A stretch of 48,859 nt of DNA, taken from an uncultured Bacteroidales bacterium (GTDB lineage: Bacteria; Bacteroidota; Bacteroidia; Bacteroidales; UBA4417). The translations under genes and the position numbers were made by a program. Below are positions 8,907 through 23,547 of the stretch, in pieces. The notes beneath the pieces are model-generated. The model was not told the DNA's origin. It searched no databases and was given only the letters and a program-made list of their open reading frames with translations. How positions within the stretch are numbered: position 1 is the stretch's first letter; every line of letters begins with the position of its first letter. The stretch is from positions 1 through 48,859 of the forward strand of contig CAISRK010000473.1 of the NCBI GenBank assembly GCA_903887815.1, in the 5' to 3' direction.

Positions 8907-11900
8907 ATGAAGAATATGGTATTATATGAGTTTAAATCTTTACTCAGGTTCCACGCCCGGAAAGTGTGGTTATTCTGTTTTACAGTACTCATTTTAACTA
9001 CTACCATTCATGCATTTGCAGAGGGAACGCGGCAGTTTGAACCCACCGGAGCCCCGATGCGTTCCTATTGCAAAATAGCATTAACCCGTAACACTGCCGA
9101 CAGCAGGATTCCATTTGGTTTGATCAATTGTGCTGTTGAATACCGGCTAAATATCCACATCAAAGATTTTACTGCTGAAAAAATCTATCTTGGGGTTGGT
9201 GATATTATCGACTATTATGACAATGCCTTACTATACAATGACTTAAGTTACCAGATTAAGGATCCAAACGGGAATGTACTTCCGGGGTTTTCGCTCAGGC
9301 CTCTGCCAAATAATATAAACCAATCCGGTTATATTGCTACAAACAGCGAAGCTTTGAGCGGGCCTGATATCAATAATTCGAACCCGTCAGGTTATGAACC
9401 TATCGTGATAACTCCATCGATGAACGGTGATTATATACTTGAATTTTCATTACCTGGAAATGATGAAAAAACGATGCGAATCATCAATTATATTGATGTT
9501 ACTGTTGCTAACGGGATTACACCCATCAACGGGCGCCTCTGGAGTAAAGCCTGGCAGCTCAGTTCGGGCAATGTGGATGCCGATGTGAGGGCAACGTACA
9601 CCCTGTTTTATGTGTACTCCAGCGACAGTGTGGTAACGCGCTTCGACTGCAACGGCCTGGCAGGTGGAGTGTGGGCCATATACAGCAACGAATGGGGATG
9701 CGGCACCAGCGGAACATGGAATAACAACCGCCGTTCTATTGTGGGTAATGCAACCGTGGAGCCACAGCATAAAATATTCCTTAATGATCCGGATCCGCCG
9801 GCATATCCTTCGGGTCATATAGGCGAAATGATTGATTTTAAAATACTTCCATCTGATTGTGATACTGTAGTTACGTTCTGGACAAATGTCAGTAAAGGGG
9901 GTAACATTGAGGTAACCATCGATGTTCCACCCTATAATCCTATTACACCAGGCCCCGAAGATGTTCAACTCGGATACAGTGTATCATCGGGTCAAAATAC
10001 CCTGCTACCTGCCTGGAATGGTAAAAACGCCCTGGGAATTCCCGTTCCCAACGGGACGGCGGTGGAAGCACACATACGTTTCCTGAACGGCTTATCGAAT
10101 ATCCCGCTCTTCGATGTGGAAGATAACCCGAACGGGTTTAAAGTGGATATTCAGCGGCCCGTCCCGGTCACAGGTTCCACCCGGCTGCGGATTTTCTGGG
10201 ACGACATGCTTTTACCACCTGCCTTTTCACCAACCAGGAATGTGACAACCGGATGCGAATATACCGGAACGGATCCCTATTCAGGTTGTCATCCATGGAA
10301 CTATATTCAGGGTGGCTTTAATCTTGGCGATCTCAATACGATTAATTCCTGGTGGTATTTTATTACAAACGAAATCCTGTCGATACCAATAACAATCAAA
10401 CTGGGCCCGTCGAAAGGGTTAATTTCCGGACCGAAAAATATTTGCTCGGCCCAGGTGGTGACTTTCCGTACAAAGAGCATTCCTTTCGCACAACAATACA
10501 TATGGCATATAGAGGGGCCGGGATATTCGGCTGATTTTGTAAAGTCAGCTCCCGATACAACTTTCAGTCATGATTTTAACCTGGCAATGCCTGCAGGTGC
10601 TTATGTGGTTTCGGTTTTCGGTAAAAATCCACAGTGCGGCTCAGGCGAGAAGGTTTTTTACGGCACATATCTTAGTAGCGACAAGCCTCCGCCCGTTAGC
10701 GGGGAATCATCGGTATGTGATAAAGCCACGTATCAATATACAATACCGGGGTCCTATTCCAGCACCCAGTGGAGTTTACATAACGGTGAAATTGTTAGTC
10801 AGCCCGGCGCCAATCCCGTTACAATCCACTGGAATACCGTCGGAGCCGATACGTTAAGGGTGCTTGCAACCAATGCCGACTGCGGCACAAGGTTATCGAT
10901 AATTCCGGTTTTAGTACATCCTTCGGCTAAAGCAGGATTTTTTGCCAAAAACGAAGGAACAAGTTGCCCGGGGCTTCCGGTTCATTTTACTGACACATCC
11001 TCGGTAGTATCAGGCAGTCTTGTTTCGCGTTACTGGGATTGGGGCAACAGTGGTTTTCACGACGGGAACGATATCCTGGCTGATTATGCATATACTGCTA
11101 CCGGAACTTATACCGTTAAGCTGAAAGTTACTACCGATAAAGGTTGTACTACCGAAACATCGCAGCAGGTAAAAATTATCCCTTATCCCGAAGCCTCATT
11201 TTCGTACTACCGGAATTGTGTGTCGCAACCTGTACAACTTACCGACAACTCAACCGGAACGGATATAAATTCATGGAAATGGGACTTTGGCCCTGCTGCT
11301 GTTACTTCTGCCAATACAGGATCGAGGCAGCCCGAAGCCGTGTTCCCACTCACCGGTACCTATCCTGTGAGCCTGGTGATTTCAAACCGGTTCGGTTGTA
11401 CCGATACTGTAGTTAAACAACTAACTATTCATCAGCTGCCGGTGGCCGGGTTTGTGAACGAATTCCCCTGCCAGGGAACAAGCCTGCTGTTTACTGATAA
11501 GAGTATTGAGGCCGATACCCTGCTGAAACAATTTTCGTGGGAATCGATATCCGCCAAGGGAGAGCGTAGTATCGTAACCGGCAATCCGGCACTTTTGCGT
11601 TTCAACGAGGCCCTGGATTATATTGTAAACCTAAAGGTAACCGATGCTTATGATTGTTTCGATACCGTATCATCTGTAATCGATGTGAAACCAAAACCGG
11701 AATGTTCATTTTCCTATTCGGTCGTGCCCAACGGTATACTCCTGTTTAACAATACATCCTCCGGTGCAGAGCATTATTACTGGAATTTCGGAAACGGGGA
11801 AAATTCAGATATCGCGGAGCCTGAAACCACTTTTAACTCCGAAGGCGATTATTCCATCATGCTTATAGGAACCAGCAGCGATGGCTGTATTGATACAGCT

Positions 11901-12209
11901 ATAGTTCAATATTCCTATTTACCCGGCTTATGGATGCCTGATGCTTTTTCTCCTGATAATAACGCTAAAAATGATATTTTCAGACCTGTTACACAGCGTA
12001 CCACACTCGATCCTTATCAACTGCTGATATACAACCATTGGGGACAGCTTATCTTCAAAAGCACCAGTTTTTCCGAGGGCTGGGATGGGACCTATAACGG
12101 TGAGCCCTGCCCTATTGGTAATTATACTTACTATATACAATACAGGGAAGCCGGTAAAGACAACACCAACACTGTTATCCAACGCGGGGTGGTTCGGTTG
12201 ATACGATGA
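8907..12209 (+). CDS. Large secreted PKD/Ig-repeat protein with gliding-motility-type (T9SS type-B) C-terminal sorting domain
   Basis: Signal peptide. The first ~500 aa have no motif I recognise. Several PKD-like repeats follow (WDWGN...GTYTVKLKVTTDKGC; WKWDFGP...GTYPVSLVISNRFGC; YWNFGNGE...GDYSIMLIGTSSDGC). C-terminal CHU_C-like domain (WMPDAFSPDNNAKNDIFRP...WGQLIF...GWDGTYNG). Confidence 0.8.
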   Translation: MKNMVLYEFKSLLRFHARKVWLFCFTVLILTTTIHAFAEGTRQFEPTGAPMRSYCKIALTRNTADSRIPFGLINCAVEYRLNIHIKDFTAEKIYLGVGDIIDYYDNALLYNDLSYQIKDPNGNVLPGFSLRPLPNNINQSGYIATNSEALSGPDINNSNPSGYEPIVITPSMNGDYILEFSLPGNDEKTMRIINYIDVTVANGITPINGRLWSKAWQLSSGNVDADVRATYTLFYVYSSDSVVTRFDCNGLAGGVWAIYSNEWGCGTSGTWNNNRRSIVGNATVEPQHKIFLNDPDPPAYPSGHIGEMIDFKILPSDCDTVVTFWTNVSKGGNIEVTIDVPPYNPITPGPEDVQLGYSVSSGQNTLLPAWNGKNALGIPVPNGTAVEAHIRFLNGLSNIPLFDVEDNPNGFKVDIQRPVPVTGSTRLRIFWDDMLLPPAFSPTRNVTTGCEYTGTDPYSGCHPWNYIQGGFNLGDLNTINSWWYFITNEILSIPITIKLGPSKGLISGPKNICSAQVVTFRTKSIPFAQQYIWHIEGPGYSADFVKSAPDTTFSHDFNLAMPAGAYVVSVFGKNPQCGSGEKVFYGTYLSSDKPPPVSGESSVCDKATYQYTIPGSYSSTQWSLHNGEIVSQPGANPVTIHWNTVGADTLRVLATNADCGTRLSIIPVLVHPSAKAGFFAKNEGTSCPGLPVHFTDTSSVVSGSLVSRYWDWGNSGFHDGNDILADYAYTATGTYTVKLKVTTDKGCTTETSQQVKIIPYPEASFSYYRNCVSQPVQLTDNSTGTDINSWKWDFGPAAVTSANTGSRQPEAVFPLTGTYPVSLVISNRFGCTDTVVKQLTIHQLPVAGFVNEFPCQGTSLLFTDKSIEADTLLKQFSWESISAKGERSIVTGNPALLRFNEALDYIVNLKVTDAYDCFDTVSSVIDVKPKPECSFSYSVVPNGILLFNNTSSGAEHYYWNFGNGENSDIAEPETTFNSEGDYSIMLIGTSSDGCIDTAIVQYSYLPGLWMPDAFSPDNNAKNDIFRPVTQRTTLDPYQLLIYNHWGQLIFKSTSFSEGWDGTYNGEPCPIGNYTYYIQYREAGKDNTNTVIQRGVVRLIR

Positions 12210-12488: not shown

Positions 12489-12647
12489 CAGTGCTCAGTG
12501 CCAAGTGCCCAGTACCCAGCAACCAGCTACCAGTAATCAGTTATCAGAGCTCCGTGCCGAGCAACCAGCAACCAAATGCCAGCTACCAGAAACCAGCTTA
12601 CCAGAAACCAGAAACCAGAAACACAAAACTCAGATTCCAGGAATCAG
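12489..12647. repeat. About 22-unit degenerate heptamer array (CAGTGCY then NWACCAG)
   Basis: cagtgct cagtgcc aagtgcc cagtacc ... caaccag ctaccag taatcag ttatcag ... aaaccag aaaccag ... attccag gaatcag. The array runs into the stop codon (12644-12646) of the DUF2235 gene. Confidence 0.8.
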
Positions 12648-13684
12648 AGCGGATTTCGTTTGAAATAATCAACCAGGTTAGCCGGCCGGTAATTTTTATC
12701 TTTTGTATATCGTTCGATAACTGAGGGATGCAGCCGTTCGTTGGTATTTCCTGAGCCAGATTCAATGATCCCTATTGGACGGAAATATTTAGGCATAAAT
12801 TTATAAAACCCGGTATACGACTCGTGTCCTGCTGCCAGAGGATCCGGCCCGGAAAGTATATTTTCGAAGTTAAGACGACAGGCCTTTGCATTTCCTATCA
12901 TCCACTGCAGAGCAATATCCGAAAGACCGTTTTCGTTTTCGGCATATCCTCCGCCCACATCGGAATGCACACCGGCAAACCAAACCTGTTCCAGAACCTG
13001 TCCGCTGATATCAGGCTGCTGATGCCATAAGGTTGCTTCGAAGTTTTTTCGTTTCTCATCAATTGACAGTGCATGAAATGCATTATCAACATACGATGAC
13101 AAATCGGTATCGTGAAACTGGTTCTTTTTACTGAGCGTTCCGTTAAGGATAAGCGGATTCCCTAAAGCACCTACAGTGTCCCAGACACCGATAAACCGGA
13201 TTCGTGTTGTTTCCTCCACGGCATAGGTCTTACGGAAAAGGGTCGCTTCCGCTTCACGCGGGTGCATTCCCGCCTTCCGTGAATGGTAAATAGCGTAAGC
13301 CCTGTTCACCTGGTCGAGATTTTCTTTTTTCAGAATACCCGAATTCCGGATCAGCCCTGACAAACTTCGTACTGTAAAAGCTCCCCGGCTGAAACCGAAG
13401 AGGAAGAGTTCATCACCTTTTTCGTAGGTATTGATAATGAAACGGTAAGCCTGCAAAATATTTTCCGAAATCCCAGTTCCGGTAGCACCATCATACACCC
13501 GTTTCAGCGCACCCCCTTCACTTCCAATCCCGGTATCATAAAAGAGCAGTTGCGATGCTCCGTCGGATGAGTATTCCCCCAGGGCATTTGCCATTTTAAC
13601 TACATTGGTCAGGCAACGTTTCCCGTTTTCCATCTTGTCGGGCGTGTTCCAGGTGCCGTCGCAAAAAATTGCGATTCGTTTCAT
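12644..13684 (-). CDS. DUF2235 alpha/beta-hydrolase (Tle1-family phospholipase-like)
   Basis: N-terminus MKRIAIFCDGTWNTPD, GxSxG nucleophile elbow in LFGFSRGAFT, and WFAGVHSDVGGGY. All three are family hallmarks. No signal peptide. Confidence 0.85.
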   Translation of the reverse strand: MKRIAIFCDGTWNTPDKMENGKRCLTNVVKMANALGEYSSDGASQLLFYDTGIGSEGGALKRVYDGATGTGISENILQAYRFIINTYEKGDELFLFGFSRGAFTVRSLSGLIRNSGILKKENLDQVNRAYAIYHSRKAGMHPREAEATLFRKTYAVEETTRIRFIGVWDTVGALGNPLILNGTLSKKNQFHDTDLSSYVDNAFHALSIDEKRKNFEATLWHQQPDISGQVLEQVWFAGVHSDVGGGYAENENGLSDIALQWMIGNAKACRLNFENILSGPDPLAAGHESYTGFYKFMPKYFRPIGIIESGSGNTNERLHPSVIERYTKDKNYRPANLVDYFKRNPL

Positions 13685-13780: not shown

Positions 13781-14116
13781 CTAAATTTTAATGAGGCTGA
13801 AAACAGTACTTGTAATGATATCGAGCAAACCGGCCTTGAATTCATCAGCTTTAATCATGGCCAGGCCAGCCTGTTTCAAGGCATTCATCTCGATAAGTTC
13901 CTTTTGCGCCAATACCAGGAATTCGAAATCAGCCTTCGACAATTCGCCTGATGCCAGCTGTATGGTCCAGTTTTCGAGATTATGCTTTAGCTGATCCAGC
14001 AGGCTCAGCGCATCAGTTTTGGCTGCCTCTTTGTATTCCTTGAATGTGGCAATAGCCAGTTCGGTAACCTTGGTTTTCAGGGTTTCCAGTATGGGTTTAA
14101 AAATATCGTTGGGCAT
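13781..14116 (-). CDS. Hypothetical small helical protein
   Basis: 111-aa ORF co-directional with its neighbours. Charged, amphipathic helical composition. No signal peptide and no motif recognised. Confidence 0.55.
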   Translation of the reverse strand: MPNDIFKPILETLKTKVTELAIATFKEYKEAAKTDALSLLDQLKHNLENWTIQLASGELSKADFEFLVLAQKELIEMNALKQAGLAMIKADEFKAGLLDIITSTVFSLIKI

Positions 14117-14254: not shown

Positions 14255-14701
14255 CTATTTCACTTCCGATGGTTTGATTTTTTTACTTTCCAGTCCCGAG
14301 ATCTGGTCGAAAGCGCCGGCAACAAGTTTCTTTTCTTCCGAAATGAAGGCCTTCCCTAGTGTTTTTTCTTTTTCCCATCGCACCAGGAATCCACCCAAGA
14401 GGTGTCCTTCCGGATCCAGGAGCTTGTCCCACAGTTTTATAGTAATCTCATTTTTCGGCCTGTTCTTTTCATATTCGTATACCTTCTGAAGTTTGGTTTT
14501 CAAATCCTGTGCAGCAACCTTGTTCGTGTCATAATTTTCTTTGGCAAGATCCATCACATTCAAAGCATCGACCTTAACGGAGGTAGTCTGCGCATAGGCA
14601 TACTGATCGAACGATGTAATTGAACTGCAGGAGGAATATATCAGCAAAAGGATTACAATCGATGCATTCAGCATCCTCTTTGGAAATTTACTGTTTTTCA
14701 T
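14255..14701 (-). CDS. Hypothetical lipoprotein
   Basis: 148-aa ORF with signal peptide and lipobox (LLLIYSSCSS). No known domain recognised. Confidence 0.65.
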   Translation of the reverse strand: MKNSKFPKRMLNASIVILLLIYSSCSSITSFDQYAYAQTTSVKVDALNVMDLAKENYDTNKVAAQDLKTKLQKVYEYEKNRPKNEITIKLWDKLLDPEGHLLGGFLVRWEKEKTLGKAFISEEKKLVAGAFDQISGLESKKIKPSEVK

Positions 14702-14767: not shown

Positions 14768-15295
14768 TTATTTTTCACTTACTTTCCGGTTCCGCAACCG
14801 GCGGATGAGCAGAGCAATCTGAAGCAGAACGTAAAGTATAGGTTTCAACAACCAGAATCCGGCCCTTTTCCCGAAAAAAAATGCCAGTGCAGCAGTTGTA
14901 ACTAAAGGAAGTGAATTCCGGATTCCGGCCAGTATATCGTTACCTGCAAACATATTGCAAAAACCCGCTGATTGGCATGAAACATAAATGCCAGCGAAAA
15001 CCAGGTAAAGTGCCCAGACAATACTTTTAGGCAAAAGCGTCAAGCCGTTCAGTTTCTGCCTGAATGTTTGCATGGCTGAATTCATTTGCTGTTCAATAAG
15101 CAGGTCGGATTGTATCAGGCTGATCATATTGCCGCCAGCTGCGATTTTATTTTTCGGTGAAAAAAAAACAAGAATATCGCCGCAAATATTTCCACGCACC
15201 TGGAAACATACAGTATCTCCTTCGGCCATGCTTTGGATTTCGCCTGTATGCATGATTTCCCTGTATGCCCTGTACGCTTCGACAAAAACTTTCAC
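14768..15295 (-). CDS. Hypothetical membrane protein (soluble ~85-aa N-domain + 3 predicted TM helices)
   Basis: 175-aa ORF. Its ATG overlaps the upstream stop (ATGA at 15292-15295). Hydrophobic segments IVWALYLVFAGIYV, LPLVTTAALAFFFG and ILYVLLQIALLI, followed by a basic tail. Confidence 0.65.
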   Translation of the reverse strand: MKVFVEAYRAYREIMHTGEIQSMAEGDTVCFQVRGNICGDILVFFSPKNKIAAGGNMISLIQSDLLIEQQMNSAMQTFRQKLNGLTLLPKSIVWALYLVFAGIYVSCQSAGFCNMFAGNDILAGIRNSLPLVTTAALAFFFGKRAGFWLLKPILYVLLQIALLIRRLRNRKVSEK

Positions 15296-16098
15296 GATTT
15301 TGTTCCTTTCGGATTAAAAATGCCCAGAATACTTTCGCCCAGCTTAACCACAACCTGAATAAGCGACTTCCAATACTCAACCGAAATGGAAATGGATTGC
15401 TGGTGTACCTGGTGGATAATCGTTATAGGTTGTTCGGCAAAGGATTTCGAAATACGCGTTGTAACGTCCCCGTCCATACCGATAACGGTTTGAATTAACA
15501 CCTGCTCCGTGCCAATATCATTGGCTTTCTTAATAACCATCAGTTGCCTCAGGTCCAGGTTTAGTTCATACGCATCGGCCTTACTGGCGGGCATATTCCT
15601 GAACTCTTTTACATTATCGGCATTATCGAAGTTGAAAGCGGTATTTTCCCTGAAAAGGTCAACGCCTTCCATTTTCAGAATACGCCTGATATCGTCGCAT
15701 ATGTTATGAATCCGCTGCAGCATCATAATGTCGGAATTCAGTGTATCGTCAGGAATCCGGATCATCGCTTTATTTTCATTTAGCTTAGTAATTGAACTTT
15801 CGGCCCTGTCGCTTAATTCCTTAAAGGAATTATATCCTGATCCGGCATAAACACTTTCGCCCCTGAATGGATTAACAGCACTGGAACTACCCGGCTGCAG
15901 GAATGCATTATACTTGTCACCAAGGCTAAGCAGTTTCAGGTGAAATGTTGTTGCCAACGAATGCAATAAAAGTCGCGGGCTTGCAGGAGCCTTTGAAGCA
16001 CTCATTTCGTCCTTGATAATTGTGTTTATTTCAAGGTGAGTGAGGTCGTAAAGTGTGGAACTGACTTTTGCTTCCAGTTTTTTGGTATCGCCAAACAT
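15292..16098 (-). CDS. Hypothetical protein, enlarged paralogue of the upstream 118-aa protein
   Basis: 268-aa ORF. It shares with the 118-aa ORF an N-terminal motif (LYDLTHLEINTII vs LSNLTRLETNTLV) and a C-terminal motif (IGMDGDVTTRISKSF vs LVTGDITTAMTPKF). Confidence 0.65.
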   Translation of the reverse strand: MFGDTKKLEAKVSSTLYDLTHLEINTIIKDEMSASKAPASPRLLLHSLATTFHLKLLSLGDKYNAFLQPGSSSAVNPFRGESVYAGSGYNSFKELSDRAESSITKLNENKAMIRIPDDTLNSDIMMLQRIHNICDDIRRILKMEGVDLFRENTAFNFDNADNVKEFRNMPASKADAYELNLDLRQLMVIKKANDIGTEQVLIQTVIGMDGDVTTRISKSFAEQPITIIHQVHQQSISISVEYWKSLIQVVVKLGESILGIFNPKGTKS

Positions 16099-16119
16099 AG
16101 CTGTAGGATAAACAAGCGT

Positions 16120-16476
16120 TTATTTACCCGTTTTTTTTGACTCTGCTTCGAAAAAGTCAAGAGCCCCGAGAATTTCCTTCAGTATAGCAATATTTTGACG
16201 TACGATTTCGTGCCCCTGGTTCTCACGGGTAAGGTGAAATTCGCGGAGTTCCTTGTATTCGGTCACGAATTTAGGAGTCATTGCAGTAGTGATATCACCT
16301 GTTACCAGGTTGATTTGTGAGCACATACGGTCTTCAGCACTATCCGTAATAATCGAGGTTTTAATACCTGCTGATTCATTAAATGAATATTTGCCCACGA
16401 GGGTGTTGGTTTCGAGGCGCGTCAGGTTCGAAAGGCTAGCCAGGGCCTCCTTCAGGAATGATTTTTTGTCACTCAT
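16120..16476 (-). CDS. Hypothetical small cytoplasmic protein (first gene of a 3-gene operon)
   Basis: 118-aa ORF, 21 nt upstream of the 268-aa ORF. No signal peptide. See the paralogy motifs listed for 15292-16098. Confidence 0.6.
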   Translation of the reverse strand: MSDKKSFLKEALASLSNLTRLETNTLVGKYSFNESAGIKTSIITDSAEDRMCSQINLVTGDITTAMTPKFVTEYKELREFHLTRENQGHEIVRQNIAILKEILGALDFFEAESKKTGK

Positions 16477-16993
16477 AACTTTAGTTTTTAAGGTTAAACC
16501 AGTTGAACTATTTCGAAATAATAATGAAAAGAACGAAAAGTAATATAGAGTTATATTCAGCTATTCAAATTTACGGCCTATCAGACAAAAGTGTACCGGC
16601 AGGAACGATTTTTTTTACTTAATTTGAATCGCATACCTCTGATAACAGCAACAGGGAAATATAGTTCAATTGCGATAGTAATAGCTGGAACTGCAATACC
16701 AATATGAGGGTTTTCCCCAACACATTAAATACCGAAACTTAACCTCCTGATGGGAAATCCAGGCGCGGAAAAGAACCTATCCGGCTAATAGTATTCAAAA
16801 ATACCGGCAGACCTTATCAACAGCCAAACCTGCATTAAAATCATTTGCCGGAAAGCTGACGGCAATGAATATACGTTCGTCAACTCATATGGGAGTTGCG
16901 ATACCGGTCCGGGAAATCAGGAGGAATTGACGCAGCCAAAAAAGCTGCCACAAACAAAGCGAATAACGCAGTCAGATTAATCAGTTTTCATTT

Positions 16994-17632
16994 TCAGCAC
17001 CCGCCGCCCGACCTGGCTTCTTTTTTAACAGGGGCAACCGATTTTTTCACTGGCATTGCAGGCACAGCTGCCTGGCGGCCATTTGCTGGAGAAGTTAGTG
17101 CTTTTAATGCGAGAGTATCGATTAACGGTGTTTCACTCATTTGAGGTAAACTGAGGGTTACCGAGTCGGAGCTGGCCGGATCGAGCTGGGCATAATTTCC
17201 TGTAAATAAAAGCACATTCTTAAATCCTGTCTGATGGAGCATAAGCCATGGACCGTTTGCCTGCTGTTCGGTTTCGCCATAAAGTATTGCCGTCTGACCC
17301 GCTTTTTCGAGATCACGGAAAACCGACTTATTTTTAGGATCGAATAATTCGCGCACCGGGATATTTACCGCATTTTTAATATGGCCAAGTTCGAAAGCTG
17401 CAGAATTCCGGACATCAATAAATAGGGTCTTACCATCACTGTCCTTAAGCAACAAAGCGGCCTGCTGGGGTGTAATAACCAGCGACTGGTCATTCAGCAG
17501 CTGAAGGCTTTCGGTCGGCGAAAGTACAAATTTCAGATCCGGTCTTCTGAAAGTGATCAAACCGGTAATTATAACCAGTACAATAGCAACCACAACGATT
17601 GTAAGCCGGTTAGTTTTCGATAGCTCGTTCAT
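16994..17632 (-). CDS. Membrane-anchored rhodanese-homology protein lacking the active-site Cys, with C-terminal SGGGC tail
   Basis: N-terminal TM (LTIVVVAIVLVIITGLI). Rhodanese fold motifs (LFIDVRNSAAFELGHIKNAVNIP ... FKNVLLFTGNY). The catalytic-loop position is Gly (ILYGETEQQ). A Lys/Pro/Ala-rich linker ends ...KKEARSGGGC-stop, verified in the DNA (tcg ggc ggc ggg tgc tga on the minus strand). Confidence 0.8.
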   Translation of the reverse strand: MNELSKTNRLTIVVVAIVLVIITGLITFRRPDLKFVLSPTESLQLLNDQSLVITPQQAALLLKDSDGKTLFIDVRNSAAFELGHIKNAVNIPVRELFDPKNKSVFRDLEKAGQTAILYGETEQQANGPWLMLHQTGFKNVLLFTGNYAQLDPASSDSVTLSLPQMSETPLIDTLALKALTSPANGRQAAVPAMPVKKSVAPVKKEARSGGGC

Positions 17633-17652
17633 AAGATATTATTTTATGATTA

Positions 17653-18273
17653 TTAACAACCTCCGCCCGATGATGCTCCTGCCGGCTTTTTGGTAACGGT
17701 AACGGCTTTTTTTGTACTTGTAGCTACTTCAGTTTTAGTTTCTGAATTTCCGAAAAAGTGCTGGCAGGCAGCCGAACGGAACTGGTAAAGATTTATTTCT
17801 TCAACCGAAGCCGTTTCCACCGGTTTCACGGCTTTTACAATAGTGCTGAACCAGGTATTTATTCCACCCTGCATCACGTAAATACGTTCCATACCCAGCC
17901 GTTTGCATAGAATCCATGCCTGGTCCGACGTAACATCGGAATTAGAATAAAAAACTTTATCCTTTGCTTTCTGGCCGATTATTTCCCTGGCCGGAGCCGA
18001 CAAAAGCGAATCAACCGGGATATTTATCGCTCCTGGTACCTCAAACGTATTGAATTGTTCTTTTGACCGGACATCAATCAGCAACAAAGCAGGATCCTGT
18101 TTTACAAGCCTGTCGGTTATATCGTCGGTTGAGAGGAATCGCGAAGGATCGTCGATAGCCGCCAGCAGCATTTCAGGCCTGAGTTGTTTGTCAGTATCCC
18201 TTTGAGGCATAAAAAGCATCCCGATTCCGAGAGCAATGATAATGCCGGTTAGTAACAGATATTTCTTATTCAT
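17653..18273 (-). CDS. Membrane-anchored rhodanese-homology protein lacking the active-site Cys, with C-terminal SGGGC tail
   Basis: N-terminal TM (LLLTGIIIALGIGMLF). Rhodanese motifs (LLIDVRSKEQFNTFEVPGAINIP ... IYVMQGGINTW). The catalytic-loop position is Ser (VFYSNSDVTS). The tail ...KKPAGASSGGGC-stop was verified in the DNA. Confidence 0.8.
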   Translation of the reverse strand: MNKKYLLLTGIIIALGIGMLFMPQRDTDKQLRPEMLLAAIDDPSRFLSTDDITDRLVKQDPALLLIDVRSKEQFNTFEVPGAINIPVDSLLSAPAREIIGQKAKDKVFYSNSDVTSDQAWILCKRLGMERIYVMQGGINTWFSTIVKAVKPVETASVEEINLYQFRSAACQHFFGNSETKTEVATSTKKAVTVTKKPAGASSGGGC

Positions 18274-18284
18274 AGGTCCCGGTG

Positions 18285-18878
18285 TTAATACTCAACTTTC
18301 TTAACTTTCTTTTCAACAAATGTTGCTCCGTAGAACATGCCGATGGCTGCCAGGATAAGCAGGAACCCGAAAACGGTTTCACGCATGCCAAGCAAATCGT
18401 AAATTTTTACACCACCCAGGTTACGGCTGTTATAAATGCCTTCGAATAAAGGATATAATTCGGAGAAAATAAATACGCCTATAAACAGGCCGGCACTGAA
18501 AAACATGGCATCGATTTTCCCAATGGCAACACCTGTAAAACTTGTACCCGGGCAAAATCCGCCTAACGCAAATCCAAAACCCATGATAATGCCGCCAATA
18601 ATAGCCGACATAACATAATACGGATTGATATACAGCATGGATGCATCCATCCATCCCATATAATCGAAATAAATTATACCGGTCATTGCTGTTATTGCCG
18701 CAGTAAAGAACACCCGCAAAACCACAAAATCGTAACCGAAAAAGGTACCCATAATTTTGCGCGACGAGGAAAACCCCGATGCTTCGAGTGAGAAACCAAA
18801 GCCAGCACCCAGCAACAATGCAATTACATTGTTCCAGGTTTCGGGTATAACGCCCATTGGAATAAGAGGTCCTACCAT
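18285..18878 (-). CDS. YeeE/YedE family sulfur-compound (thiosulfate-type) transporter, second half-protein
   Basis: 197 aa, polytopic. Conserved GGFCPGTS motif with Cys. Typical two-gene YeeE/YedE arrangement. Confidence 0.8.
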   Translation of the reverse strand: MVGPLIPMGVIPETWNNVIALLLGAGFGFSLEASGFSSSRKIMGTFFGYDFVVLRVFFTAAITAMTGIIYFDYMGWMDASMLYINPYYVMSAIIGGIIMGFGFALGGFCPGTSFTGVAIGKIDAMFFSAGLFIGVFIFSELYPLFEGIYNSRNLGGVKIYDLLGMRETVFGFLLILAAIGMFYGATFVEKKVKKVEY

Positions 18879-18934
18879 ATGTTTTTAGTATTAGATGTAG
18901 TTATGTTAAAAGTTTGTTTTGATTTAAGAATACC

Positions 18935-18995
18935 GATTAACGATTTTAGATTTGCGATTTTTCTGTTCTTTCTGATACTTCTAAAATCGTTAATC
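18935..18995 (-). promoter_or_regulatory. Perfect 15-bp inverted repeat (hairpin) in the spacer between the two YeeE/YedE genes
   Basis: gattaacgattttag (18935-18949) and ctaaaatcgttaatc (18981-18995) are exact reverse complements separated by 31 nt. The loop contains gatttgcgat, a 10-mer also present at 40070-40079. Confidence 0.6.
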
Positions 18996-19002
18996 CTTGT
19001 TC

Positions 19003-19530
19003 TTAAATCCATAGTTTCTTGAAAATCCAGGAAAACACATAAGCTGATCCGAAAATCGCCATCATGGTAATGATTCCCGAAGCCGAAAGTACAGCCATAC
19101 CGCTTAATGCAGCCCCGCTGGTGCAACCGCGTGCGAACTGCGAACCGACACCGAACAGGATACCTCCTATTATAGCCGCCACCAGCCGTTTCCGGCTGGT
19201 AATCTTGGGTGAATGTTCGGTTTTGAACTTCAATCGCCCGTAAAGAGTTCCTGAAAGGAATCCCCCGACAAGCACACCTATAACTTCGAAAACAAGCCAG
19301 TTATTCATCGGGCTGCCTTCGTCGCCCAGGAATTTGCTGTAATATTTGTTATTATCGGCATGAACAGGTGCTACTGCATGAACGGCAGTAACCACAGTGC
19401 TTTTTACAGCGCCGCTGGCACCTAGCCCGCGTCCGGTTATATAATAGGTACTGAAAAGTACCAGGCCCAGCAATACACCACCCAGGTATGGATTGATGTA
19501 AAAGGTACCGTCTCTTTTAAGCTTTTCCAT
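19003..19530 (-). CDS. YeeE/YedE family sulfur-compound transporter, first half-protein
   Basis: 175 aa, polytopic. Motifs ITGRGLGASGA and FARGCTSGAALSG with a conserved Cys. Confidence 0.8.
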   Translation of the reverse strand: MEKLKRDGTFYINPYLGGVLLGLVLFSTYYITGRGLGASGAVKSTVVTAVHAVAPVHADNNKYYSKFLGDEGSPMNNWLVFEVIGVLVGGFLSGTLYGRLKFKTEHSPKITSRKRLVAAIIGGILFGVGSQFARGCTSGAALSGMAVLSASGIITMMAIFGSAYVFSWIFKKLWI

Positions 19531-19625
19531 GATTAAAATATTTTGTTTTGAAAGTAATTTCTGTTTTTAATATTCGAAAGACAGAAGCCAGAATAATGAA
19601 GTCGGTGTCGGAAGTCAAATATGTT

Positions 19626-19689
19626 CCCTTGTCGCCTTGTCTCCATTTCGCCTTGTCGCCTTGTCCCCATTTAGCCTTGTCGCCTTATC
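19626..19689. repeat. 8 x 8-bp tandem array (GCCTTGTC-type)
   Basis: cccttgtc gccttgtc tccatttc gccttgtc gccttgtc cccattta gccttgtc gccttatc, read directly between psrC and yeeE. Confidence 0.85.
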
Positions 19690-19704
19690 ACCGAACCCAC
19701 CAAT

Positions 19705-19739
19705 CCCTAACCCCTAAAACCTAACCCTCAACCCCTAGT
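19705..19739. repeat. 5 x 7-bp CCCTAAN array (G-rich on the transcribed minus strand)
   Basis: ccctaac ccctaaa acctaac cctcaac ccctagt. It overlaps the psrC stop codon (19735-19737). Confidence 0.8.
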
Positions 19740-20676
19740 ACAAATACCGTGTTATCTGCCCAGCTTCCACCATGATGAACCTAAAAATAAGGCCTCCAAA
19801 AAGTATAAAAACAGCAGGAATTATGATTGGCATTTTGTAACCTATAAGCTCCAGTACCTCAAGTATAGCAGGGAAGATCAATCCCAGCAAAATCACAAAC
19901 ACAAAGAACGGAACGGTAAACTGCCCGCCAAGGAAAAGATTGGCTGCATTGATCTGCACCTCGGATCCTGCAAGGAAACCCATGATCATGTGGGTGATAA
20001 AAAACAGTTCGACTACGATAAAAAGGAGGTCGAGGCGGCTTATGATCCTCCGTTCCTCGTGGCTTTTACTCATAAGAATAATGCAGGCTGCCCCGGTCGA
20101 CATACCCGACACCAGGAACAACGGCCCGAGAATGGTTGTATTCCACAATGGACGTGCATTAAAGGCCGAAAGAAGTATACCTGTATAAATCCCGAGTATA
20201 ACGGCATAAATAGCCATAGGCCAGGCGATATACCAACGGTTTCTGATAACCCAGGCTTCGAATGTATACAGGAATTTGAATTTCCAGTCCCAGTTTGGGA
20301 ATACTTCCCTGATATAACTTGCCGACCAGATTATCGAAATCGGGGTCATGATCATTAAAACCCAGGCGCCCCAGCCCATAGGCGATTCGAGGCGGATGGT
20401 TGTGTACAACTGCCAGAAATACATCTTATGCTTCAGATCGAGGAAAAGCATAAACAAGCCTATTATAAGAGCAAACGGTACCAGGAAAGGCGCCCATTTC
20501 ACCGTAGCAGGCATTTCTTTTTCTTTTCCAAGGATGGTATAAACCCCGGCGAGGAAGAGTATTCCTGCGGCCAGTCCTCCAAGGAAAAGGTAAATAGGTA
20601 TCTGCCAGTGCCATATATGCAGGTAAGGGTCAATATTGGGAATATTGCGACCGCTTACAAATAATTCTTCTTTCAT
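19735..20676 (-). CDS. psrC: NrfD/PsrC-type polytopic quinol-interacting membrane anchor of the molybdoenzyme
   Basis: 313 aa with about 8 predicted TM helices, directly downstream of the 4Fe-4S subunit. Size and position match PsrC/PhsC (NrfD family). Confidence 0.8.
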   Translation of the reverse strand: MKEELFVSGRNIPNIDPYLHIWHWQIPIYLFLGGLAAGILFLAGVYTILGKEKEMPATVKWAPFLVPFALIIGLFMLFLDLKHKMYFWQLYTTIRLESPMGWGAWVLMIMTPISIIWSASYIREVFPNWDWKFKFLYTFEAWVIRNRWYIAWPMAIYAVILGIYTGILLSAFNARPLWNTTILGPLFLVSGMSTGAACIILMSKSHEERRIISRLDLLFIVVELFFITHMIMGFLAGSEVQINAANLFLGGQFTVPFFVFVILLGLIFPAILEVLELIGYKMPIIIPAVFILFGGLIFRFIMVEAGQITRYLY

Positions 20677-20700
20677 AGTTTTCTGTCTTTGCGCTAACGG

Positions 20701-21234
20701 TTATACTAAGTAGAAAATCTGTGGTTTTGTTCCGGCTTCGGGTGCAAGTGCCTTGAATTTCCTGTTTTTCAATACATTGACAATTTCCGAATTGGGATCT
20801 TCAAGGTCGCCGAAATACATGCAGCTGGTTGGGCAAACGCTGACACAGGCAGGTTTCTCGCCTTTGCGAACGCGATGGATACAGAAAGTACATTTATCAA
20901 CATACCCGTCAGGATGCGAATATCTGGCTTCATACGGGCAGGATTCGATGCAGGCGCCGCATCCGATACATTTGTTGTGAGTTACAAGTACAATTCCCCC
21001 ATCCTCAAAATGGCTTGCACCTGTCGGGCAGCAACGCACACAGGGTGAATTGTCGCAGTGGTTACACCGTTCCGACCGCAGTTCGATACTTACATTCGGA
21101 TAGGTTCCATCAACGGTTTCGCTAACCCAGTCGCGGCAGAAACCTATAGGGACATTGTTTTCGGTCTGGCAGGCGACCACGCAGTCGCTGCACCCCACAC
21201 ATTTGCGGGTATCTATAGCCATTGCATATCTCAT
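20701..21234 (-). CDS. psrB: 4x[4Fe-4S] ferredoxin-type electron-transfer subunit
   Basis: Four Cys clusters: CVGCSDCVVAC, CNHCDNSPCVRCCP, CIGCGACIESCP and CTFC...CVSVCP. The start overlaps the psrA stop (ATGA at 21231-21234). Confidence 0.9.
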   Translation of the reverse strand: MRYAMAIDTRKCVGCSDCVVACQTENNVPIGFCRDWVSETVDGTYPNVSIELRSERCNHCDNSPCVRCCPTGASHFEDGGIVLVTHNKCIGCGACIESCPYEARYSHPDGYVDKCTFCIHRVRKGEKPACVSVCPTSCMYFGDLEDPNSEIVNVLKNRKFKALAPEAGTKPQIFYLV

Positions 21235-23477
21235 GACTCGGTCTCCTTTCGCGGATCGTCCTTAATAAAAGTTATAAAATTGCCCCGCATACCGGTGCCA
21301 CCCATTATAGGGTCGATCATCACATTGGTAATCATCTCGGTATCATTTGCACCGCGGCCGTAAGCCAGGTGAAGCGGTTTATGGTGATGCCCGAATCCGT
21401 GAACGATATAAACCGAATCCCATCGGATCCGTTCGGTCAACCTTACTTTTACAGGGAATTTCGAAATTTCGCCATCCTGGTTCTTAAGCCAAACATACTG
21501 GTCCTTCTTAAATCCCCATATGCCGGCTACCTGCGGGTTAACCCAAACTGAATTTTCGGGCATCAGGGCAACCAGGTTGGGGTTGTTGGCGGTACGGCTA
21601 AAGGTATGCATAGGAGCCCGGCCGTATATGAGGCGGTAAAATCCTTCCTCCGGTTCAGGATGTTTTGTAAATAAAGGCATAGGGTCGAAACCGGCTGCGG
21701 CGAGTTCGTGCGAAAACAACTGAATCTTACCCGAGGCAGTCTTAAAAATATGAGGTGTTCCCGGTTCAATATAGGGTGAAGTTTTGCGTGCAATCTTTTT
21801 CACACCAATACGCTGCATTTCGGCAAGTGAGGATCCAACCTGTTTCAACTGCCAGTCAAGCACTTCTGTATACTCTTTATAATTGAAGAACGCAGCAAGG
21901 CCAAGTCGTTCACCAAGTTGTTTGGCTATCCACCAGGCTGGCTTGGTTTGGTTTTTAGGATCAACTGCCGGCATGCGAAGTCCCAAAGTTGGTTCGCGGT
22001 GCGCTGTAGTGCGGATGTCGTCGTATCGCTCAAGATATGTACATTCAGGAAGAACCACATCAGCATAGCCTGTAATCTCCATTGGCATTGTATCAACAAC
22101 AATCAGAAGATCAAGCGATTGCAGGGCTTTCTTAAACTGCTCTTTTAATGGAACCGTAGATACCAGGTTTGTACCAGCTACAACCCAGCCTTTAATTTTT
22201 GCTTCCTGTCCTCCCGCGGGACTTGAAGCTTCAATTACCAGGTTGGTTGGAGCTTCGTTGGCCAATGGATAATTTCCGTTCAACAGGTCTTTCCAGGTCC
22301 AGGCGGGTTTAGGATATTCGGGATGCGGGAATTCAGGTATTTTTATTCCTTCTTTAAAGAATATTCCACCCCTGTTCCCCCATGAACCCAGGAGTGCGTT
22401 CAGAATAGCAATTGCCCTTGTACGCTGGACGTCATCACCATACCAGGCTGTATGGCGGCCCGGATGAATTATAGTTGAAGGTGCAGCGTTTGCCATTTCA
22501 CGTGCAGTGCTGCGGATAAGATCAGGTTTTAAAGTGGTAATGCCATACGCCCATTCGGGGGTGAAGGAGACAACATGCGCTTTCAGTTCCTCGAGCCCTT
22601 CGGCATTGGCTGCAACATATTCTTTGTTGTACAAATCATCATAGATGAGTACATGTATCCAGGCAAGTAAAAGTGCTATATCTGTCGATGGTTTTATAGG
22701 CAGCCAGTATTTCGATTTTGAGGCGGCAGTCGAAAGACGGGGATCGACCGTAATGATAACGGCACCGTTGTCGATAGCCTGACTCATTTCCTGAACCTGC
22801 CCGTTATGCATGTTTTCACCTATATGGGAACCGATAAGGACAAGGCACCGGGTATCGCGTATGTCGGTAACTTCGGGACTGCTGACCGATTCCCCGAAAG
22901 TTGCTTCGAAGCCTACATCGCGGGCCCCGCGGCATTGTGCAAACGAAGGAGCAGCCATATTGCCCGTGCCGTAAGCTTTCATGAGATGTGTCAGGTAGTT
23001 GGCCGGGGATCCGTGCATGAACAGAGCCATGCTTTCGGGACCATACTTGGCTTTCATATCCGACATTTTTGTGGCTACAAAATCCAGGGCTTCGTCCCAG
23101 CTGGCTTCGCGGTAAGTTTGTTTTCCATCCTTAATCACCCGCAATAAGGGGGTTTTAAGCCGGTCGGGATCGTTATACATTCCAACACCACCGGTACCGC
23201 GCGGGCAGAGTTTGCCGTTGCACTGGGGATCGTCGTAATTCCCGGTGATTTTTTTAATATTCCCGTCTTCGGTAACATGAGCCCAACCGGCACATTTCCA
23301 GAAACACACCTCGCAATAGGTTGGGTAGCGGTGAAGCTTCTCCTTGCCTCCACCGGTCATCGCCAAAAGATCATCCAAAACAGTTGATCCAAAGGTATAA
23401 CGTGAGATCCCTGCACCCAGTGCCAGTGTTCCGGCTCCCAAAGCTGAAATTTTAATAAAATCTCTCCTTGTCTTCAT
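21231..23477 (-). CDS. psrA: Periplasmic Mo-bisPGD oxidoreductase catalytic subunit, polysulfide/thiosulfate reductase (PsrA/PhsA) type
   Basis: Tat signal MKTRRDFIKISALGAGTLALGAG. I placed the start at this Met (23477) rather than the ORF-track start at 23519. N-terminal FeS motif CEVCFWKCAGW...CPRG. About 748 aa, as for PsrA/PhsA. Followed by psrB and psrC. Confidence 0.85.
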   Translation of the reverse strand: MKTRRDFIKISALGAGTLALGAGISRYTFGSTVLDDLLAMTGGGKEKLHRYPTYCEVCFWKCAGWAHVTEDGNIKKITGNYDDPQCNGKLCPRGTGGVGMYNDPDRLKTPLLRVIKDGKQTYREASWDEALDFVATKMSDMKAKYGPESMALFMHGSPANYLTHLMKAYGTGNMAAPSFAQCRGARDVGFEATFGESVSSPEVTDIRDTRCLVLIGSHIGENMHNGQVQEMSQAIDNGAVIITVDPRLSTAASKSKYWLPIKPSTDIALLLAWIHVLIYDDLYNKEYVAANAEGLEELKAHVVSFTPEWAYGITTLKPDLIRSTAREMANAAPSTIIHPGRHTAWYGDDVQRTRAIAILNALLGSWGNRGGIFFKEGIKIPEFPHPEYPKPAWTWKDLLNGNYPLANEAPTNLVIEASSPAGGQEAKIKGWVVAGTNLVSTVPLKEQFKKALQSLDLLIVVDTMPMEITGYADVVLPECTYLERYDDIRTTAHREPTLGLRMPAVDPKNQTKPAWWIAKQLGERLGLAAFFNYKEYTEVLDWQLKQVGSSLAEMQRIGVKKIARKTSPYIEPGTPHIFKTASGKIQLFSHELAAAGFDPMPLFTKHPEPEEGFYRLIYGRAPMHTFSRTANNPNLVALMPENSVWVNPQVAGIWGFKKDQYVWLKNQDGEISKFPVKVRLTERIRWDSVYIVHGFGHHHKPLHLAYGRGANDTEMITNVMIDPIMGGTGMRGNFITFIKDDPRKETES

Positions 23478-23547
23478 GTAGCATTTTAATTTGGCAATCA
23501 AATACTTACTGATGCACATCAGCCTTTTCTGATTGTTTATTGAATAA

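Follow-up and report, generated by a model that had tools for sequence, protein, structure and literature searches.

A conserved three-gene operon of Bacteroidota encodes two soluble paralogs and a membrane protein and may be linked to signal-less envelope-degrading enzymes

Introduction

The use of a holin together with an endolysin for secretion has precedent (PMC9527704, PMC10847048), and the holin and type 10 secretion system (T10SS) examples to which the locus reported here can be compared are Serratia ChiWXYZ, Yersinia entomophaga, and C. difficile TcdE/TcdL. In this study, we analyze a three-gene operon in a 48,859-nucleotide (nt) stretch of DNA from an uncultured Bacteroidales bacterium (GenBank assembly GCA_903887815.1, contig CAISRK010000473.1); this whole stretch is called the window. 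The genes encoding proteins of 118, 268, and 175 amino acids (aa) are labeled A, B, and C, respectively, and L-numbers denote homologous loci that were fetched for comparison.

The A-B-C triad is similar to the holin and T10SS examples in that a small membrane protein with a basic C-terminal tail lies next to envelope-degrading enzymes that lack export signals, and in that an endolysin-like CHAP, M15, or Amidase_2 gene heads the operon in relatives. As in the T10SS, the setting is chromosomal and not that of a phage (PMC9527704, PMC10847048). However, C, with 175 aa and a soluble N-terminal domain of ∼85 aa, is larger than typical holins, the triad needs two or more soluble paralogous partners, and many triads have no lytic neighbor.

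Antibacterial effector loci of the type 6 secretion system (T6SS), with their Tle1 lipases and Tae amidases, provide a second comparison. The window contains a bona fide Tle1-like DUF2235 domain beside a possible immunity lipoprotein, and relatives of the triad carry CHAP amidases, PLD-like enzymes, and proteases, all of them signal-less. However, only 3 of the 8 loci with the lipase also have the lipoprotein, and A, B, and C match no known T6SS adaptor family.

A third comparison is with YbaB-type proteins, which are obligate dimers. A has ∼110-120 aa, and its AlphaFold model shows a helix followed by a three-stranded sheet and a long helix, an order of elements like that of YbaB, but the fold match is not significant, the LExNT, GDxTT, and His motifs of the triad are not YbaB motifs, and neither the helical insertion of B nor the fusion to transmembrane helices seen in C is known in YbaB. 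The YbaB-like ESX-1 proteins EspH, EspD, and EspL act as chaperones of secretion substrates (PMC6107294).

Below, we show that A, B, and C form a tight operon that is conserved well beyond the window and belongs to no described family. We also put forward a tentative proposal, possible but short of probable, that the three proteins form a membrane-anchored hetero-complex that gates or releases adjacent signal-less lytic enzymes in a holin-like manner.

Results

A, B, and C form one tight operon

The three genes of the triad are as follows.

16120..16476, minus strand: gene A, 118 aa, an open reading frame (ORF) for the bare shared module
15292..16098, minus strand: gene B, 268 aa, an ORF with an A-type module split by a predicted inserted helical bundle of ∼150-170 aa
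14768..15295, minus strand: gene C, 175 aa, an ORF translationally coupled to B through a GTGA overlap

A and B are separated by an intergenic gap of 21 nt, and the TGA stop codon of B shares 4 nt with the start codon of C. The first-pass annotation of this DNA had described a three-gene operon with these ORF sizes and this A/B spacing, and both the spacing and the overlap bear it out, with all three genes on the minus strand. It had also read the letters of the B/C overlap as ATGA; the 4-nt overlap is present, but its letters are GTGA, so that the start codon of C is GTG. This GTG start is supported because the residues of C that lie ahead of its first internal methionine (M15) are conserved among C orthologs.

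Selection on these genes was estimated by comparison with L005, a Bacteroidales metagenome-assembled genome (MAG) chromosome that is syntenic with the window and whose B is 91% identical to the window's B. Of the three, A has the lowest ratio of nonsynonymous to synonymous substitution rates (dN/dS) against L005 (0.024), followed by B (0.11) and C (0.17). Together with the three genes downstream of C, all six genes are under purifying selection (dN/dS 0.02-0.17), and from these low values we conclude that they are real genes.

The triad is widespread and its gene order is conserved

The first-pass annotation had called this operon an orphan, a description that does not survive a search for homologs. 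There are ∼140 close homologs of B and 91 of A, all of them unnamed and without a Pfam domain, and profiles detect 238 homologs of A. An exhaustive HMMER search with a B profile recovered 637 representative clusters (50% identity) at E ≤1e-3 and 447 at E ≤1e-10. A scan of GTDB, which sampled one genome per species, gave 40 loci from Bacteroidales, Lentimicrobiaceae, Prolixibacteraceae, Draconibacterium, Marinilabiliaceae, Cyclobacteriaceae, Roseivirga, and one "Chlorobiota" bin, and a distant member of the B family was found in an Acidobacteriota MAG. The family is usually present in single copy, and it has at least one cultured carrier, Marinilabiliaceae bacterium JC017 (locus L042, contig RHGE01000042).

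The genes were co-localized in every homologous locus examined, and every complete locus that was inspected has the same order of a small protein, a B-like protein, and a membrane protein with a DGD motif, an order that holds across phyla. B and the membrane protein gene usually overlap by 4 nt or lie a few nt apart. An ortholog of C follows B in at least 28 loci, and a shorter variant does so in 9 more. Literature searches found no paper describing the A/B/C family, and a phage origin of the triad was considered and rejected, with no match in 50,697 phage records or in a pattern scan of IMG/VR.

Three further observations concern individual members of the family. The MAG JBBQBC01 (Co_metawrap_1396) holds two triads, one with a Tle1-like lipase and the other with a 337-aa B and no lipase (L009 and L027). 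In the Acidobacteriota locus L045, two identical IS200/IS605-type transposase genes (8967-9386 and 11719-12138, minus strand) bracket A-B-C, which suggests recent mobility or rearrangement there. The Joint Genome Institute name "Asp-tRNA(Asn)/Glu-tRNA(Gln) amidotransferase B subunit" carried by the A homologs P0122 and P0158 is unsupported by our searches and looks like an annotation artefact.

A and B share a module that is split by an insertion in B

The blocks that A and B have in common are located as follows; Z is a paralog of A that is described further below.

16396..16434, minus strand: N-terminal shared block of A, residues 15-27, LSNLTRLETNTLV, end of helix 1 and strand 1
16267..16326, minus strand: GD hairpin block of A, residues 51-70, MCSQINLVTGDITTAMTPKF, matching B by hhalign and hidden Markov model (HMM)
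16015..16053, minus strand: N-terminal shared block of B, residues 16-28, LYDLTHLEINTII, aligning to the A block
15439..15507, minus strand: C-terminal hairpin block of B, residues 198-220, EQVLIQTVIGMDGDVTTRISKSF, followed by a helix with His232, aligning to the A and Z hairpins

The order of elements in A is a helix, the strand LETNTLVG, the hairpin CSQINLVTGDITTAM, a helix that contains His81, and a long C-terminal helix. The consensus of the module in A and B reads as a helix, an LExNT strand, a hairpin of the form h-(S/Q)-x-h-x-(T/D)GD-h-T-T, and a helix in which a His is conserved. Residues S53, G60, D61, I62, T64, and F70 of A are invariant; T25, H81, and E85 of A and E23, N25, D211, T213, and H232 of B are further invariant residues. 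Among 40 B homologs, the N-terminal block is nearly invariant and the C-terminal hairpin block has invariant columns.

The likeness between these blocks exceeds chance, but it is visible only to profiles. Pairwise BLASTP of A against B detected nothing beyond GDITT/GDVTT (E 0.28). When the families were aligned with hhalign, LSNLTRLEvNTLVG of A paired with LYDLTHLEINTIIKD of B over 18 columns in the N-terminal block (E 5e-4), and I-x-GDITTAMTEKF paired with I-DGDVTTRISKSF in the hairpin block (E 5e-5). A non-iterated HMM of the A family matched the window's B with an E value of 2.4e-4 in two segments that are colinear (A 4-30 with B 5-31, A 49-74 with B 198-223) and matched 43 of 43 B orthologs (median E 5e-4); none of ∼3,000 unrelated ORFs scored below E = 1. 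The paralogy that had been proposed for A and B is thus real at the level of the module.

Structure prediction gave a compatible picture. The AlphaFold model of A (predicted local distance difference test score (pLDDT) 73.6) has an alpha-beta3-alpha topology of a helix, three strands, and a long helix. In the AlphaFold monomer of B, residues 40-190 form a confident helical bundle, and the most conserved stretches, residues 1-37 and 199-229, have a pLDDT below 50. This helical core between conserved termini agrees with the earlier suggestion that B is the A fold with a large insertion. B is thus an A module that carries a helical insertion of ∼150-170 aa between strand 1 and the hairpin. In a 501-aa member of the B family (P0247, L049 6171-7676), the helical insertion is tandemly duplicated between the conserved N- and C-terminal blocks, so the insertion evolves as a separable unit.

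C is a membrane protein that may carry the hairpin motif

The features of C are as follows.

14804..15043, minus strand: predicted membrane-spanning region of C, residues 85-164 (Kyte-Doolittle)
15158..15211, minus strand: putative hairpin motif of C, residues 29-46, VCFQVRGNICGDILVFFS, read directly from the sequences

C consists of a soluble N-terminal domain of ∼85 aa, 2-3 hydrophobic helices, and a basic tail, RRLRNRKVSEK; it thus has the holin feature of a small transmembrane protein with a charged C-terminal tail. An N-terminal domain of this size followed by three transmembrane helices had been predicted for C. Two of these helices are strong Kyte-Doolittle peaks (residues 85-103, 1.75, and residues 146-164, 1.96), and the third (∼128-142) is weaker. 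The only Pfam signal in C is to DUF6050, at an E value of 0.014 that is below the cut-off.

The hairpin motif of the shared module, which in C reads VCFQVRGNICGDILVFF, had been noticed in A and B only. In distant C proteins it has the consensus h-Q-x-DGD-h and is followed by a helix that contains a His. An HMM of the short C variants matched the C terminus of B at E 8e-3, which gives weak statistical support for the module in C. These similarities weakly suggest that C carries the A/B hairpin motif ahead of its transmembrane helices.

A, B, and C belong to no described family

When A, B, and C were compared with Pfam, NCBIfam, PADLOC, and PHROGs, nothing scored above threshold. Sequence searches of the PDB with profiles of A (in two alignments), B, and Y (a further gene described below) and with the single sequence of C gave chance hits only, among them GFP-like proteins, the B2 protein, and a designed helix bundle. 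These results are in accord with the first reading of the DNA, in which no domain was recognized in any of the three proteins. Foldseek searches of the PDB with B returned generic helical bundles only (best E 0.09), and a search of BFVD with A returned nothing informative.

The top Foldseek hit of A in the PDB was Haemophilus influenzae YbaB (1j8b), which was not significant (E 0.24, probability 0.41, TM-scores 0.27/0.32); Escherichia coli YbaB (1pug) was at rank 25, and the TM-scores of YbaB structures ranged from 0.27 to 0.38. PF02575 had no match to A or to 52 members of the A family even at E up to 10, and the best phmmer match obtained with E. coli YbaB had an E value of 0.53. When the A, Z, B, and C families were aligned by hhalign to an alignment of 10 YbaB sequences (nine fetched YbaB genes and E. 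coli YbaB), the probability was <1%. Membership in the YbaB/EbfC family was therefore rejected; the resemblance of A to YbaB, as seen in the model, is one of topology and not of family.

These results also bear on whether A and B are DNA-binding or nucleoid-associated proteins of the YbaB/EbfC type that have no relation to the envelope. We regard this as very improbable. The predicted topology and the nonsignificant top fold hit speak for it, but the sequence tests for YbaB fail, their conserved surface carries polar and acidic residues (E, N, T, and D) instead of basic ones, and the genes have an obligate link to a membrane protein. Taken together, the searches place the three proteins in no described family; the three-gene module that encodes them is well conserved and strongly constrained.

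In many relatives the triad is part of a longer operon

Two extra genes, Z and Y, precede the triad in 21 loci, and the window has A-B-C only. The loci listed with this lysin-Z-Y-A-B-C operon, which the first-pass annotation had missed, are L001, L003, L020, L023, L025, L028-L031, and L033-L042 (for example, L041 6902-11111). Z (125-150 aa) is a paralog of A (hhalign probability 90%, E 1.6e-6). Y (∼540 aa) contains three PG_binding_1-like repeats; 2 of 19 Y members reach PF01471 (best E 1e-3), and the third repeat of Y also matches the peptidoglycan-binding domain of the adjacent M15 enzymes. After these repeats, Y has a long amphipathic helix of basic character, then another DGD motif with a match to Z (E 8e-4 to 3e-3), and, at its C terminus, a hydrophobic hairpin.

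The first gene of this operon encodes a peptidoglycan hydrolase without a signal peptide, and three classes that are unrelated to one another occur in this slot: CHAP with PG_binding_1 (10 loci), M15 with PG_binding_1 (5 loci), and Amidase_2 (1 locus). In four loci with A-B-C only, a DUF5675 gene lies directly 3′ of C; DUF5675 has been described as a C82-like lysin domain in a 2026 preprint (bioRxiv 10.64898/2026.04.11.717860). In one Acidobacteriota locus, an IS200-type transposase gene separates the triad from an SLT transglycosylase gene, which is the second gene upstream. A Tle1-like lipase is found on one side or the other of the triad in 8 loci, including the window, and GDPD/PLD-like, Peptidase_C1, and C70-like genes are other recurring neighbors. 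Altogether, a signal-less lytic enzyme lies beside the operon in ∼29 of 46 loci, some of which are near-duplicates. The flanks beyond the adjacent genes are not conserved.

The genes downstream of C in the window are as follows.

14255-14701, minus strand: lipoprotein, 148 aa, downstream of C, lipobox LIYSSC
13781-14116, minus strand: helical protein, 111 aa, downstream, all-helical
12644..13684, minus strand: Tle1-like DUF2235 alpha/beta hydrolase (lipase), PF09994, E 1.5e-85

All three had been named in the first-pass annotation. The lipase matches PF09994 over the full domain, has no signal peptide, and lies outside the core triad; it is a candidate for a cargo or partner enzyme. The genes for the lipoprotein and the 111-aa protein are accessory and accompany that of the lipase in only three loci (the window, L005, and L018). 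The lipoprotein has no match in Pfam, NCBIfam, or the PDB and has a full-length match to the PADLOC model "Csx23" (PDLC01072, E 2e-14); it could be an immunity protein for the lipase or something else.

Defense and chaperone functions are unlikely

The gene neighborhoods bear on two alternative functions. One is an abortive-infection or other anti-phage module, in which infection would be sensed by A and B and the cell would be killed by C acting with interchangeable lytic effectors (lipase, peptidoglycan hydrolases, or proteases). A hallmark of conflict systems is a conserved core whose degradative neighbors are diverse and can be swapped, the two triads of one MAG have different neighbors (L009 and L027), and the lipoprotein beside the window's triad matches a PADLOC model named Csx23. 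Against these points, A, B, and C have no hit in PADLOC-DB v2 at E up to 1, no nucleotide-binding, nuclease, or signaling domain is present, and peptidoglycan hydrolases would be unusual defense effectors. No defense genes or islands surround the triad in the window or in those fetched loci that were inspected; the window contains a polysaccharide utilization locus (PUL), cargo genes of the type 9 secretion system (T9SS), and a polysulfide-reductase operon, distant triads lie amid housekeeping genes, and the family was not found in the phage collections. The earlier suggestion of a defense or envelope-stress system therefore fares differently in its two parts: a defense role is unsupported and unlikely, but a connection to the envelope is plausible from the neighboring genes.

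The second alternative is that A and B are YbaB-like chaperones or adaptors that bind and stabilize signal-less effectors for another secretion machine (T6SS-iii or other), which would parallel the role of EspH, EspD, and EspL as substrate chaperones of ESX-1 (PMC6107294). This possibility draws on the alpha-beta3-alpha model of A with YbaB as its top PDB fold hit, and on the resemblance of the neighboring CHAP amidase, Tle1 lipase, PLD-like, and protease genes to sets of antibacterial T6SS effectors. However, the link to YbaB is nonsignificant (Foldseek E 0.24, TM-score ∼0.3, with negative Pfam and hhalign tests), immunity genes are not consistently found beside the enzymes, and the obligatory membrane protein C would be left unexplained. 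In addition, no T6SS structural, VgrG, PAAR, Hcp, or adaptor genes were seen in the loci inspected or in the part of the window's ORFs that was scanned. We consider the chances of a chaperone function to be slim.

The region upstream of A and the rest of the window

A 517-nt intergenic region (16477-16993), whose length agrees with the earlier description, separates A from a rhodanese gene. It contains one candidate feature.

16477..16573, minus strand: probable promoter and leader, a candidate comprising TAAATTTG and an AU-rich unstructured leader

The element TAAATTTG (16573..16566) resembles a Bacteroidetes -7 element; this motif shows no enrichment in the window. Over the final 65 nt ahead of the start of A (16477-16541, minus strand), 63 of 65 positions are identical to L005, compared with a synonymous divergence (dS) of 0.37-0.59 for the genes. 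This leader is AU-rich and unstructured (z +1.2) and is not conserved in loci more distant than L005. The 65-nt stretch is probably a promoter and translation-initiation leader. A riboswitch or other leader RNA in the 517-nt region was considered and rejected, with no Rfam hit, no stable fold, and conservation in the closest relative only. Sigma-70-type promoters and terminators were also set aside, their counts being not above shuffled expectation.

The surroundings in the window comprise a PUL with SusC/SusD, T9SS cargo genes, and a polysulfide-reductase/rhodanese operon. Upstream of the triad lies a cluster of sulfur-respiration type (16994-23519, minus strand) that encodes a 762-aa molybdopterin oxidoreductase, a 4Fe-4S protein, NrfD/PsrC, a YeeE/YedE sulfur transporter divided between two genes, and two rhodaneses, each ending in GGGC. 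A 906-aa ORF (24307-27027, plus strand) combines an N-terminal cytochrome b domain with multihaem domains of the cytochrome c3/c7 type.

Discussion

The three proteins are produced together from co-transcribed genes and most likely assemble as one hetero-oligomeric complex at the cytoplasmic face of the inner membrane. In such a complex, the conserved polar strands would provide the contacts between subunits, and the residues involved would be the invariant E/N/T of strand 1, the S/Q, D, and T of the hairpin, and the His of the next helix. If these strands are inter-subunit contacts, this would explain why AlphaFold fails to place them in the B monomer, and the obligate dimerization of YbaB-type proteins fits the idea of hetero-assembly. 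C would tether the complex to the membrane. Judging from the neighboring genes, the complex may gate, release, or activate signal-less envelope-degrading enzymes, which would be the DUF2235 lipase in the window and several unrelated classes of peptidoglycan hydrolases in relatives. Its mode of action would then be that of a holin or lysis-control device that did not originate in phages, with a logic similar to that of the T10SS.

Signal-less lytic enzymes usually adjoin the triad in Bacteroidota, and the triad may therefore control their release. The presence of three non-homologous hydrolase classes in the same operon slot, the PG_binding_1-like repeats, amphipathic helix, and hydrophobic hairpin that Y contributes, and the holin-like tail of C also count in favor of a holin-like function. 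Other observations weigh against it. At the level of the proteins, A, B, and C have no similarity in sequence or fold to holins, antiholins, spanins, or secretion components, and the window's own C had no significant match in the module profile tests. At the level of the window, the lipase lies three genes away from the triad, and it is the nearest enzyme; there is no peptidoglycan hydrolase at this triad, so the adjacency of holin and endolysin is not found there. Among the relatives, Tle1-like genes accompany only about a third of the loci with A-B-C only, and four distant triads (L046, L047, L049, and L050) stand alone amid housekeeping genes, including those for EF-G, DnaK, Ffh, and helicases, with no lytic enzyme nearby. 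Finally, a tblastn search with B of the 50,697 phage records and the pattern scan of IMG/VR did not find the family.

An alternative is that the triad is a housekeeping envelope complex, that is, a membrane scaffold or regulator of cell-wall or membrane homeostasis (for example, of autolysins or of lipid turnover in growth or stress), for which the lytic enzymes of some lineages would be regulated clients and not exported cargo. The solitary distant triads in housekeeping contexts, the strong purifying selection, with A most conserved (dN/dS 0.024), the wide and usually single-copy distribution of the family, and the fact that the window is no mobile island but is syntenic with L005 are all consistent with such a role. 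On the other hand, the three proteins do not resemble Psp/Vipp1, Tol-Pal, the divisome, or other known envelope systems, and the adjacent hydrolases are signal-less and look like phage endolysins, which is unusual for housekeeping autolysins. In addition, the Tle1 gene is present or absent among close relatives (L007/L009 versus L006/L008/L010) and so looks accessory. On balance, we regard a housekeeping function as possible but doubtful.

Returning to a membrane-anchored complex that controls lytic enzymes, its widest form would be that the triad, together with the Z-Y-A-B-C operon, encodes an undescribed, non-phage membrane machine built of paralogous alpha-beta3-alpha modules that exports or unleashes signal-less envelope-degrading enzymes. 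We consider this rather unlikely as it stands; it would amount to a new, holin-independent route of release or secretion that is widespread in Bacteroidota and present in other phyla.

The exit of such enzymes and of large toxins is an open problem that is now being addressed through the T10SS and holin-mediated secretion. If the proposal is correct, Gram-negative bacteria would have in the triad a new means of moving or unleashing lytic enzymes that have no export signals. It would also provide a function for more than 600 sequence clusters that are described in no database, and a small protein module, occurring repeatedly in soluble, insertion-bearing, and membrane-anchored forms, would be newly defined. 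Should the link to lysis fail, the triad is still membrane associated, deeply conserved, and under strong constraint, and it has no known relatives.

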